In this document: positions 1,705-41,975 of the stretch, piece by piece
Layout of the letters: each line of letters opens with the position of its first letter
Position numbering within the stretch: position 1 is the stretch's first letter
NCBI RefSeq assembly: GCF_044704955.1
Contig: NC_091989.1
Coordinates: 173,972,001 to 174,036,000, forward strand
Length of the DNA stretch: 64,000 nt
Source of the DNA: Pristiophorus japonicus
Taxonomy: Eukaryota
Direction of reading: 5' to 3'
The notes under the pieces: generated by a model
Told to the model about the DNA's origin: nothing
Database searches by the model: none
What the model saw: the letters and a program-made list of their open reading frames with translations, nothing else
Made by a program: the position numbers and the translations under genes

Positions 1705-2072
1705 CTGCTCAATTTATGCTCTCTGGGTCACCAACTCAACAGACAGCAGTCGTAGTTTTTTCATCGATGAAAACCTCTTCTAATGTCAATACCCACCATA
1801 GATTTTAGATTAGAGAGAAAATGAATAAATTAGTCATATGGGGGGGTTGGTGAGGGGAAAAAATTAGCTTACACGCAAAATATCACAAAGACAATTTGTT
1901 GCATCTTTGTACTTTACAGCAGAGAGCACTGAATACCTTACGCAGGTTGGGAATCTTGACTGATCCACCCCAGGGACACTAACAAATTGCAGCATTCCTT
2001 ACAGCTACCTCAGCACTGAACTTGGGAGTTTCATGGTCTGTTTGATTTAGGACCACAATATACAGTATTTTA

Positions 2073-2400
2073 ATCGCTTCTCGGCCTTTTGGCTAAGATC
2101 ATGCGTAACTGACCTGACAGGGGAGTAACCATGACCAGAAAGTGGTTCTCCCTGGATCAGGAAGGTGGTTCTCCTATGCTTTTTGGAAATAGGAGGTGGG
2201 TAGGGGGCACACATCCACCTCCATGGCACGAACCTGGTATTGCAGTACTTCCAGGAACAGTGCAGTGGCTCTAGGCCTTTTGGCTAAGAGCATTGGCGCA
2301 GAGTGATCCTTGAATGGGCCCAAGGTGACCTCTGGCGTTTGTAATCTGACAAAGAATTGGAAAGATTGGCAACGAATAAATTTTTTTTTTAAATAAAAAA
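2073..2400 (+). mobile_element. U2/U1 snRNA-derived chimeric retroposon (SINEU-like)
   Basis: 2073-2101 match U2 nt 1-29 exactly; ~2106-2174 are two U1 5'/SL1-like segments; ~2176-2264 resemble the U2 3' half; ~2268-2292 is a second U2 SL1; AATAAA and A/T tail; 16-bp TSD AATATACAGTATTTTA at 2057-2072 and 2401-2416. Confidence 0.85.
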
Positions 2401-2992
2401 AATATACAGTATTTTAATTAAAATGATGGCATTTTACACTGAAGGATGTTTTTCTGCTCATTTCATATGCACCAGCAATGCCCAAGTGCCATCGATTGCT
2501 TCATTTCCCTTCCCCCTTTCCCATATCCTTTTAACTTTAACATTCACAAATATTTACCCACTCCCTTTTAAAAAAAAAACCTATTATGAATTCCACTGTT
2601 TCTGAAAGGATATTTCATGTCCCAACAACTCTCTGCAAACTATTTTTTTAACTCCCAATGTCTCCCTTTGTTCTAGTATCCTGAATTTATGCTCTCTGGG
2701 CCACCAACTCAACAGGCAGCAGAAAAAGATTTTTCACCATTCACCTTATGAAAACCCCTTCTAATATCAATACTATTTTAAATGAGAGAGAAAATGAATA
2801 AATAAGCCACATGGGGGGGGGGGGGGGGGGAAACACACACAATGAGCCAAATTACATTTTCTAACTTAAGTCACATAGAATGTACAGCACAGAAACAGGC
2901 TATTCAGCCCAACTGGTCCATGCTGGTGTTCATGCTCCACAGGAAGCTCCTCCCATCTCACCTCATCCAACCATATCTACATATCCTTCTAC

Positions 2993-7865: not shown

Positions 7866-8656
7866 ATCACCAGGCATCCCAAAGCACTTTACAGCCAATG
7901 AAATACTTTTTAAAGTGTAGTCACTGCTGTAATGTAGGAAATGCAGCCAATTCACATACAGCAAGCTCCCACAAACAGCAATGTGATAATGACCAGATAA
8001 TCAGTTTAAATGATGTGGATTGAGGGATAAATATTGCCCAGGACACTGGAGAGAACTCCCTTGCTCTTCTTCGAAATAGTGCCAAGGGTTCTTTTACATC
8101 CACCTGAGGGCAGAAGGGGCATCAGTTTAATGTCTTATCTGAAAGACAGCACCTCCAACAGTGCAGAGCTCCCTCTGGACCAAGGCTGACACCTAGTACA
8201 GTTTATTAACTTTTGTTCCTAACTGTAATTGTACAACACATTCTGTTGCACTCACCTGTAGACAACTTTTAAATGTCAGTCTGGTCCATTTCCAAACAAA
8301 CCTTATGATTTTTTGCCACTTACTTTTTTTTTTAAGTTGATGAAGCGGGACTGCCTGACCCTGACTCCAACTCTGCTCCAATTACAATGCTCTGCGCACC
8401 TGTTCCAAACAGTCCAATGGTCTCAACATAAGTACCTCAGCCGAACCTCCCTTTCTAAACCTATATGGACTCACGCTACAATTAAATTAGTTCATTTTCT
8501 GTTGGTTTAGTGGACATTTAAGTACAACTTTGAGATGGACATCAAATCTGTTAGGCTCATGGATTATCTGAGAGAATCGACATATCTGCACAAACAGGCA
8601 AACTTTAAAACCTCTATTCAGTTAGTGTCTCCTCCTTTTATTATATTAAACTTATA

Positions 8657-10146
8657 GTGATAATTAATCAAAATTCCCTGGATTCTGGGGAGGTCCCAGC
8701 AGATTGGAAAACTGAAAATGTAACACCCCTAATTAAAAAAGGAGGCAGACAAAAAGCAGGAAACTATAGACCAGTTAGCCTAACATATGTGGTTGGGAAA
8801 ATGTTGGAGTCCATTATTAAAGAAGTAGTAGCAGGACATTTGGAAAAGCATAATTCAGTCAGGCAGAGTCAGCATGGATTTATGAAGGGAAAGTCATGTT
8901 TGACAAATTTGCTGGAATTCTTTCAGGATGCAACGAACAGGGTGGATAAAGGAGAACCAGTGGATGTGGTGTATTTGGACTTCCAGAAGGCATTTGACAA
9001 GGTGCCACATAAAAGGTTACTGCACAAGATCAAAGTTCACAAGGTTGGGGGTAATATATTAGCATGGATAGAGGATTGGCTAACTAACAGAAAATGGAGA
9101 GTTGGGATAAATGGTTCATTCTCGGGTTGGCAATCAGTAACTAGTGGTGTGCCGCAGGGATCAGTGCTGGGACCCCAACTATTTACAATCTATATTAACG
9201 ACTTGGAAGAAGGGACCGAGTGTAACGTAGTCAAGTTTGCTGACGATACAAAGATGGGAGGAAAAGCAATGTGTGAGGACACAGAAAACCTGCAAAAGGA
9301 CATAGACAGGCTAAGTGAGTGCGCAAAAAATTGGCAGATGGAGTATAATGTTGGAAAGTGTGAGGTTCTGCACTTTGGCAGAAAAAAATCGAAGCACAAG
9401 GTATTGTTTAAATGGAGAAAAATTGCAAAGTGCTGCAGTATAGCAGGGGTCCTGGTGCATGAAACACAAAAGATTAGTATACAGGTACAGCAAGTGATCA
9501 GGCAGGCCAATGGAATCTTGGCCTTTATTGCAAAGTGGATGGAGTATAAAAGCAGGGAAGTCTTGCTACAATTATATAGGGTATTGGTGAGGCCACATCT
9601 GGAATACTGCATACAATTTTGATTTCCATATTTAAGAAAGGATATACTTGCTTTGGAGGCAATTCAGAGAAGGTTCACTGGGTTGATTCTGGAGACGAGG
9701 GGGTTGACTTATGAAGAAAGATTGAGTAGGTTGGTCCTCTACTGATTGGAATTCAGAAGAATGAGAGGCGGTCGTATCGAAACGTATAAGATTATGAGGG
9801 GGTTTTACAAGGCGGCTGCAGAGAGGATGTTTCCACTGATAGGGGAGACTAGAACTATGGGGCATAACCTTAGAATAAGGGACCGCCCATTTAAAACTGA
9901 GATGAGGAAGAATTTCTTCTCAGAGGATTGTAAATCTGTGGAATTCGCTGCCTCAGAGAGCTGTGAAAGCTGGGTCATTGAATAAATTTAAGAAAGAGAT
10001 AGACAGTTTCTTAACCGATAAGGGAATAAGGTGTTATGGGGAGTGGTTAGGGAAGTGGACGTGAGTCCATGATCGGATCAGCCACGATCGTATTAAATAG
10101 CGGAGCAGGTTCGAGGGCCGTATGGCCTACTGCTGCTTATGTTCTT
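8657..10146 (+). mobile_element. CR1 LINE, RT region to 3' end, degenerate
   Basis: YRPVSLT, QHGF, YLDFQKAFDKVPH, GVPQGSVLGP and FADD motifs. Confidence 0.92.
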
Positions 10147-39654: not shown

Positions 39655-41975
39655 ACAACTTGTAATTATAAATTGCCTTTAATGCAGTAAATCGTCCCAA
39701 CCCACTTCACAGGAGTGGTTATTAAACAAAATTTGGCACCCAGCCACATAAGGAGATATTTGGGCAGATGACCAAAAGCTTGGATAAAGAGGTAGATTTT
39801 AAGGGGCAACTTAAAGGAGCAAGGAGAGGTAGAGAGGCGGAGAGGTTTAGGCAGGAAATTCCAGAGTCGAAGGCTTTGGCAGCTGAAGGCACAGCCACCA
39901 ATGGTGGAGCGATTATAATCAGGGATGCTCAGGAGGGCAGATTTAGAGGAGTGCAGATATCTCAGATGGTTGTGGAGCTGGAGGAGATTACAGAGTTAGG
40001 GAGGGGCAAGACCCATGGAGGGATTTGAAAACAAGGATGAGAATTTTTAAATCGAGGCGTTGCTTAACCGGAGCCAATATAGGTCAGCGGCATAGGGGTG
40101 ATGGGTGAGCGGGACTTGGGGCGAGTTAGGACGTGGGCTGCCGAGTTTTGGATCACCTCTATTTTACGTAGGGTAGAATGTGGGAGGCCAGCCAGGGTGC
40201 ATTGGAATAGTTAAGTCTAGAGGTAATCAAGGCATGGATGAGGGCTTCAGCAGCAGATGAGCTGAGGCAAGCGCGGAGACGGGCGATATAAAGGTGGAAA
40301 TAGGCGGTCTTAGTTTTGCTGCGAATTTGTGGTCGAAAGCTCATCTCAAGGTCAAATATGACACCAAGATTGTGAACAGTCTGGTTCAGCCTCAGACAGA
40401 AGTTGGGGAGAGGGTTGGAGTCAGTGGCTAGGGAGCAGAGTTTGTGGCGGGGACCGAAAACAATGGCTTCGGTTTTCCCAATATTCAATTGGAGAAAATT
40501 TCTGCTCATCCAGAACTGGATGTCGGAGAAGCAGTCTGACAATTTAGAGACCGTGTTGAGAGAAGTGGTAGTGAGGTAGAGCTGGGTGTCATCAGTGTAC
40601 ATGTGGAAACTGACGCTGTGTTTCTGGATGATGTCGCCAAAGGTCAACATGTAGATGAGAAATAGAAGGGAGCCAAGGATAGATCCTTGGGGGACACCAG
40701 AGGTAACGATGCGGGGGCAGGAAGAGAAGCCGTTGCAGGTGATTCTCTGGCTACAATTAGATCGATAAGAATGGAACCAGGCGAATGCAGTCCCACCCAG
40801 CTGGACGACGGTGGAGAGGCGTGGGAGAAGGATAGAGTGGTCAACCCTGTCAAAGGTTGCAGACAAGTCAAGAAGGACAAAGAGGGATAGTTTGCCTTTT
40901 TCACAGTCACAAAGGATTTCATTTGTGACTTTGATGAGAGCCGTTTCGGTATTGTGGCGTGCACGGAAACCGGATTGGAGGGATTCAAACATGGAATTGC
41001 GGGAAAGATGGGCACGGATTTGGGAGGTGACAACACATTCAAGGACTTTGACGAGGAAAGGGAGGTTGGAGATGGGGCGGTAGTTTGCAAGGATGGAGGG
41101 ATCACGGGTTGTTTTTTTGAGGAGAGGGATGATGACGGCAGATTTGAGGGAGAGAGGGACAGCACCTGAGGAGAGCAAACCGCTATCAATGTCAGCTAGC
41201 ATGGGAGCCAGAAAAGGAAGTTTGGTGGTCAGCAGTTTGGTGAGAATAGGGAATAGGCAAAGGAGCGGCAAGAGACTGTAGAGGGACGTGATCGGGGCCC
41301 AGGAGAGGCGTGAGTTTGGGGGCAGCACGGGCCAGCCCACACTGCGATATGTGTGCACACTAGGTCTGTGCAGCAGAGCAGGTCTCCAGTTGTCTTGGGT
41401 AATCCTTGCCACTGGACCAAGACCTTGCTCTGTCAAGCCCGTGTGGTGGTTGGTGTGCAACGGCCATCACACATTAAAAAAGTCCACGCACAGGCATCTT
41501 CCACCCTTCAGGATGTAGTTCAGGACCTGGAATATTAGGTCCTTCATTGAAACACCTGTGAACTCATCCTTTTTTGGTGTGGAAGTAAGTAAGTCACCCG
41601 CATGTCGAGGGACTGCCTACGATGATGATGGGAATAGGGTCATGGGGGAAGCAGGAAGTCTCATGGACAGGATGAGCTCAGAAAGGTCATGAGGAGAGAT
41701 TGGAGAGAAACTGGAGAAAGAAGATGTAAGGTCAGGGCTAGGGCAGGGAGCTTCCTTCGAGGAAGTTTGGCCCAGGAAGGGAAGAGGCAGAGGCGGCCAA
41801 ACGGATGGTCTCAATCTTAGAGACAAAGAAGTCCATGAGCTCCTCACACTTTTTGTCGGAGGTGAGGGTGGAGGAGACTGGGGTGAGGGCTTTAAAAAGA
41901 TGGTTAGCAGTGGAGAATAGAAGCCGGGCTTTATCTTTACATTCTAGAATGATTCTGGAAAAGTGAGCAATACAG
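39655..41975 (-). mobile_element. L2-clade LINE (RT to 3' end)
   Basis: ORF 40159-41460: NYRPISNLPFL, QSGFR, LLDLSATFD, GVPQGSILG, YTDDTQLY; (GTT)n-type tail. Confidence 0.9.
41258..41629 (+). mobile_element. RTE-tailed non-autonomous element inserted in L2
   Basis: 9-bp TSD GGGAATAGG (41249-41257 and 41630-41638); (GAT)3 tail. Confidence 0.8.

Follow-up and report, generated by a model that had tools for sequence, protein, structure and literature searches.

The question raised by this locus is what to make of a short stretch in which pieces of the U1 and U2 snRNAs stand in mosaic order between perfect target-site duplications: whether it is a passive processed pseudogene or a copy belonging to a mobile family and, if the latter, what moves such copies and from where they are transcribed. 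Here it is examined both within its window, that is, the whole 64,000-nucleotide stretch of Pristiophorus japonicus DNA that was analysed, and against the rest of the genome. The reading favoured, to which a probability of about 0.72 is given, is that the window copy is a dispersed member of a family that a LINE likely mobilises, with copies at position +1 of U2 genes likely acting as sources by way of the U2 promoter.

The element proper occupies 328 bp (2073-2400, on the forward strand, as are all features given below) and is bounded by identical 16-bp duplications, AATATACAGTATTTTA, at 2057-2072 and 2401-2416. Mapping its parts onto U1 and U2 genes of the same genome (reference sequences that are identical in 20/20 U2 loci and 16/20 U1 loci) recovered the order that had been proposed by a sequence-only reading, namely U2-U1-U1-U2-U2 followed by a non-snRNA tail. 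The head (2073-2107; 94% identical to host U2), which includes stem-loop I, is indeed the 5' end of U2, but it extends to nt 35 rather than to nt 29 as first described: there is no mismatch up to nt 29, and two changes occur within nt 30-35. It is followed by U1 nt 3-52 (2108-2156; 88% to host U1), with an altered 5' end and a stem-loop I whose loop has diverged, and by a second U1 piece, nt 28-47 (2155-2174; 95%), whose predicted pairing partner is the 5' end of the U1 segment, so that the hairpin becomes longer. Next comes the 3' half of U2 (2179-2265), comprising an Sm-site remnant (2179-2185), a perfected SL3 (2192-2222) and an SL4 with its loop at 2238-2250; here 2232-2265 corresponds to U2 153-186 (91%), and the preceding Sm/SL3 stretch is diverged. 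A second U2 stem-loop I (2268-2292) corresponds over 2270-2292 to U2 7-29 (91%), and to U2 7-38 in a sister family, termed B below. The tail common to the sister families (2293-2374) contains an outer stem (2296-2303/2330-2337) and an inner one (2308-2312/2321-2325), and the element ends in an A/T-rich remnant of a poly(A) tail (2375-2400). That end had been described as an AATAAA/A-rich tail; its A/T-richness stands, but AATAAA is not family-wide, being present in only 13/56 and 2/29 readable tails.

The five stems that had been named from the sequence are all present and predicted to form, and the element folds with z = -3.09 (0/100 shuffles fold equally well). Rfam recognises U2 with 65.3 bits (cut-off 46; E 1.8e-12) and U1 with 24.6 bits, which is under the U1 cut-off (E 5e-4); a scan of 1800-2700 at E ≤ 10 returned besides these only two chance snoRNA matches, and no tRNA, 7SL or 5S. 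Runs of T occur at 2087-2090, at 2180-2184 and also within the second stem-loop I. With internal runs of at least four T and no tRNA-, 7SL- or 5S-type promoter recognised by Rfam, the element does not look like a classical Pol III SINE. Within the tail, for which a U6 origin was considered, 2355-2366 matches host U6 28-39 at 11/12 bases (12/12 in another variant), a match with p ≤ 0.04 in 3/5 tails by simple shuffles applied post hoc. As for the surroundings, a local duplication (1708-1860 and 2681-2833, 76% identical) lies on either side of the element, and the remaining window is repeat-rich, with two reverse transcriptase fragments at 8609-9619 and 40162-41466; a scan of 11 of the 22 long frames in the window, made for host gene context, yielded two reverse transcriptase matches only.

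That the element belongs to a retroposon family, as had been proposed, is borne out by its 22-nt U2-U1 junction, which has 2,337 exact matches in the genome (control, 0). When the 5.9-Gb genome was searched, 2,304 candidates emerged, of which 40 were scored; each of the 40 matches near full length at 92-100%, and most of them, viewed by eye, have flanking duplications of their own. (Candidates from a first look with Rfam--224,200 for U2, 128,409 for U1 and 444,703 for U6--are not copy numbers and were disregarded.) A position-ordered set of 60 loci consists of the first 67 listed matches minus 2 already sampled and minus 5 merged neighbours; 4 of these have no readable tail, leaving 56 for analysis. 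By crude automatic calls, 39/56 of these dispersed loci carry a duplication of at least 8 bp (median 15 bp). This family, termed here family A, is a young, SINEU-like, multi-copy snRNA-mosaic SINE. It comprises three subfamilies: A1, which is the largest and includes the window copy; A2, whose head has 396 exact matches; and A3, in which U2 1-38 is intact (5/134 copies).

Two sister families, B and C, have the same tail as family A but a near-complete U2: U2 1-191 is followed by U2 7-38 (in B) or by about U2 2-30 (in C), and then by the tail. Their intact branch box together with the deletion junction has 367 exact matches, and the best 40 tail matches of sister family B/C are 98-100% alike; these motif-intact families, like subfamily A3, have transposed recently. 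At one locus (L021:1835-2135) an intact U1 1-44 head is joined to a copy of family B, so that the addition of a head is captured there; at another (L135) an inserted family-A copy is preceded by U2 about 12-53, repeated five times in tandem.

Because the inner U2 piece of family B ends at nt 38, which is the insertion point of the U2-targeting LINEs Keno (Tx1 clade) and Utopia (PMC4640811), the genome was searched for poly(A) abutting U2 nt 39 onward, a site that is described as Keno's target (PMC6136364). This yielded 86 matches (control, 0). Among 30 such loci that were viewed, several of which are segmental duplicates, the U2 sequence is preceded by a family-A tail in 18, by the 3' end of a LINE in 11 and by a family-C tail in 1. 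The targets at this site are B/C copies and also true U2 genes: within tandem U2 arrays, A2 copies start at U2 +1, with no break between them and the upstream DNA of the gene, and end in 18-110 nt of poly(A) followed by intact U2 39-191. A2 is found at +1 in two U2 gene types, the second of them at L148. The two types are about 95% alike and have different flanks (L031-L050 on C19 and C1003; L147-L160 on C9), and units of type 1, at about 770 bp, are short and contain GTT/GAT microsatellites. Behind the type-1 upstream sequence, 14 regions contain 57 intact units, 15 A2, 10 LINE and 1 edge unit, so that 25/82 classifiable U2 units are interrupted, a biased proportion inasmuch as these regions were picked for insertions; the array copies may go back to a small number of insertions that array turnover then multiplied. 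Where an insertion at the U2 site produced a duplication, this extends to U2 53 both for the SINE (L177) and for the LINE (L179, L184).

Outside the arrays, the U2 site is occupied in only 1/62 position-ordered A1 loci, and dispersed targets hardly resemble it, apart from an A at the nick; nor was the classic L1 target, TT/AAAA, seen at the dispersed loci. One site of another repeat is a secondary hot spot with repeated insertions (L011, L012, L093, L245, L291, L293, L302, L307, L311), and further sites were also hit recurrently (L196/L235/L312, L029/L236 and L010/L105/L273); by eye, a secondary site is common to the LINE and to family A/B copies (L273, L010, L105). Target immunity was considered as a cause of the changed heads and was rejected, since the LINE enters its own changed head (4/30) and the A2 head (1/30).

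The LINE that shares the site after U2 nt 38 is an intact 5.7-kb element of Tx1/Keno type with its own U2 1-44 head. Its reading frames are open: ORF1 (about 580 aa) contains two ZCCHC3-type RNA-binding domains and a zinc knuckle, and ORF2 (1,147 aa) contains APE, RT and zf-RVT domains. The LINE protein matches a zebrafish protein named transposon TX1 at 39%, a short stretch matches a Heterodontus protein at 81%, and its close protein matches BAD04856 and BAC82621 both lack a family name. Insertion before U2 nt 39, an AP endonuclease and reverse transcriptase, and Tx1-type ORFs together point to a Keno-type element. It is found within the arrays (L161-L163, L179, L182 and L184; C19, C1003 and C4309), where insertion into its own head produces tandem LINE runs, and it is also dispersed outside them. 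An origin of the SINE tail from the 3' UTR of this LINE was considered and set aside; the best local matches between the two are weak and none is convincing, so that the link to the LINE rests on shared targets.

Two loci illustrate how this LINE interacts with U2 genes. At L316 (C36), a full LINE with a 5' inversion is followed by poly(A), then by U2 39-171 and then by poly(A) again, all within one flanking duplication, which is shared with a family-C copy. This is a 3' transduction, in which the LINE was transcribed through the remainder of a U2 gene and then moved; a 5' inversion is characteristic of twin priming, a process mostly associated with L1. The LINE could, nevertheless, have an internal promoter of its own, and hence this locus does not prove use of the U2 promoter. 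At L315, a 5'-truncated copy with a tail of the window type has entered a LINE head at the same site, with the type-1 upstream sequence in front, and illustrates a route by which an element can acquire a new U2 head; the locus (on C14) is an orphan piece of U2 array, consisting of U2 remainder, spacer, upstream sequence and LINE, far from the main array.

Array copies also resemble dispersed ones closely. Among dispersed copies with an A2 head, 11/30 differ from an array copy by only 1-2 changes over 330-343 nt, and in these 11 the match to U2 begins at nt 1-16; the remaining 19/30 differ by 7-11 changes, for which other sources are needed. The life cycle suggested by these observations would run as follows. 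The LINE would act on family members through their poly(A), and copies landing at U2 +1 would be transcribed by the external U2 promoter and thus become source genes. Specifically, the U2 head would let a new cDNA join the homologous 5' part of its target, whereby the element would replace U2 at +1; Pol II would then make an RNA consisting of the element, its poly(A) and the U2 remainder; ORF2p would prime on the poly(A), with insertion mostly at loose, A-ending sites and duplications near 15 bp, the outcome being promoterless dispersed copies such as that in the window. Heads would be renewed through insertion into U2 genes and template switching to U1/U2 RNA. Family copies would in this way borrow the U2 promoter, though inspection by eye of the type-1 upstream DNA reveals no clear promoter motif. 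The partner LINE and homing to U2 genes--both missed by the sequence-only reading--would explain the U2 head.

That reading had instead proposed that selection stripped the splicing motifs while keeping hairpins on which U1-70K and U2B''/U2A' could dock, an alternative that is considered unlikely. In its favour, GTAGTA, ACTTACC and ATTTTTG are indeed all absent from 2057-2416, and this is not decay peculiar to one copy: 127/134 family-A copies lack GTAGTA in the head (7/134 keep it), and the U1 5' motif is changed in 123/134, the other 11 giving no match to the motif pattern. The branch-pairing box of U2, however, has been cut at the junction rather than removed, the head retaining G33 and, from the first half of the box, its final two bases. 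The LINE's own U2 head likewise has a changed branch box, and the motif-poor family outnumbers its motif-intact sisters about sixfold (2,337 versus 367 matches to exact patterns of unequal length), for which reason motif loss may be of some benefit. Yet the recent transposition of B, C and A3 indicates that the motifs did not have to be lost, and ATTTTTG is kept in 19/134 family-A copies, including A2, the U2-gene subfamily, which thus has an Sm core. The evidence from folding is similarly divided. After CpG changes were set aside, alleles shared by at least 4 copies break 0/23 predicted pairs, as against 14/47 for private alleles (p = 0.003; 177 3' modules and 94 5' hairpins, with alleles that are not independent because of loop replacements), so that stems are kept, as claimed, while loops change; covariation, on the other hand, was absent, RNAalifold finding two-sided changes at 0/21 consensus pairs among 20 rows chosen from 153 distinct 3' modules, in an alignment that misplaces the short B/C tail. 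(By eye, AAAG/CTTT in the B/C tail versus AGAG/CTCT in family A is a two-sided change.) SL3 is predicted to be more stable than that of host U2, and the predicted fold hides the U1 5' end within a stem. Folding thus looks constrained in the source genes, but hairpin-perfecting template switches could give the same allele picture. The U1 loop binds U1-70K, and U2 loop IV binds U2B''/U2A'. No listed variant of the U1 loop, however, equals the host loop, and this loop is among the most variable parts, containing all 8 shared alleles of its hairpin; the claim that a U1-70K docking hairpin is retained is therefore not supported. Loop IV is unchanged in 131/134 family-A copies, but it is altered in family C, and in the window copy, where it had been called intact, 2/13 bases differ from the host U2 gene. 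Docking of snRNP proteins is accordingly only partly plausible from these sequences, and loss of the splicing motifs is attributed not to any requirement but to an effect of the junction combined with drift under selection on folding only.

A further alternative, to which a similarly low probability is assigned, is that most copies arise by read-through from other flanking promoters or tandem neighbours, the copies in U2 arrays being mere passengers of the LINE's target preference. Consistent with this, no A1 source was found at U2 +1, a search for full-length A1 heads behind the two U2 upstream sequences that are known having given 0 matches. Moreover, 15/56 dispersed loci adjoin another family member, and flanking transcription was proposed for SINEU-2 by Kojima (2015; PMC4494074). 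Against it, dispersed copies start within the U2 head--9/60 A1 copies match U2 from nt 1--and none of the 60 A1 loci has either of the array upstream sequences, and the youngest A2 copies match an array copy. Much less probable still is that chimeric processed pseudogenes arose independently of one another and add up to this set of copies, or that the element has been domesticated as a host ncRNA gene. The repeated addition of heads, as at L021, is what such an origin might leave, but thousands of copies have the same junction and diagnostic bases, and copies situated in U2 genes disrupt these genes and have poly(A) of 18-110 nt; independent pseudogenes are refuted by the 2,337 identical junctions, which are not private to single copies. 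Mobilisation by the LINE, with sources at U2 +1, hence remains the preferred reading.

In the literature searched, SINEU is reported from crocodilians only, and the relevant part of Kojima (2015; PMC4494074) states that none was found outside them and leaves SINEU transcription open. No such family in cartilaginous fishes was found in the literature searched, including the pertinent part of PMC4758252, though Repbase or Dfam may hold one. Family A has a U1/U2-derived 5' region, a length under 500 bp with poly(A) and shared junctions, and the target preference of a Tx1-type LINE, as SINEU does, and so appears to extend SINEU-like elements beyond crocodilians. As far as the description in PMC4494074 goes, SINEU-1, -2 and -3 likewise have a poly(A) tail, internal T runs and tandem insertions sharing a duplication; together with Tx1-Mar they show repeated addition of U1/U2 heads and partial duplications; and their Tx1-type partner, a LINE with a U2 head, was inferred from shared targets, no LINE with the same 3' end being described there. 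They differ in that SINEU and Tx1-Mar target Mariner-N4, whereas the target here is U2 nt 38/39, and in that the host here is not a crocodilian; the likeness described is one of build. In addition, copies here stand at +1 of U2 genes, a candidate answer on transcription (PMC4494074). The partner LINE and Keno insert ahead of one and the same U2 sequence, and both have an AP endonuclease; unlike Keno and Utopia as characterised in the portions of PMC6136364 and PMC4640811 that concern them, the LINE here is also dispersed and has non-autonomous, snRNA-derived followers. The R2 SIDEs of Eickbush and Eickbush (2012; PMC3414825) are, in the section that treats them, comparable in being non-autonomous, in inserting into a multicopy RNA gene and, as would be the case here, in depending on transcription of their target; they are, however, LINEs shortened by internal deletion that have a ribozyme and retain the LINE 3' end, whereas the element here is made of snRNA pieces, has no matching LINE tail and spreads mostly outside the array.

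Tentatively, and with rather more doubt than belief, the system may be viewed as a parasitic snRNA: the SINE, together with its Keno-type LINE, would take over U2 genes at +1 and be produced by the Pol II machinery for snRNAs; its source subfamily would retain loop IV and the Sm core, entering snRNP biogenesis and so gaining stability, and spread would be traded off against the number of intact U2 genes. If this were true, it would amount to a SINE life cycle without an internal promoter that evolved apart from crocodilian SINEU. Independently of that view, the copies in U2 genes show a SINE damaging an essential spliceosomal gene array. At a practical level, thousands of SINE copies are to be found among the sequences annotated as U1/U2 in this genome. 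More generally, young copies at the start of U2 genes, a partner LINE and near-identical progeny make the question of SINEU transcription directly testable in this shark.
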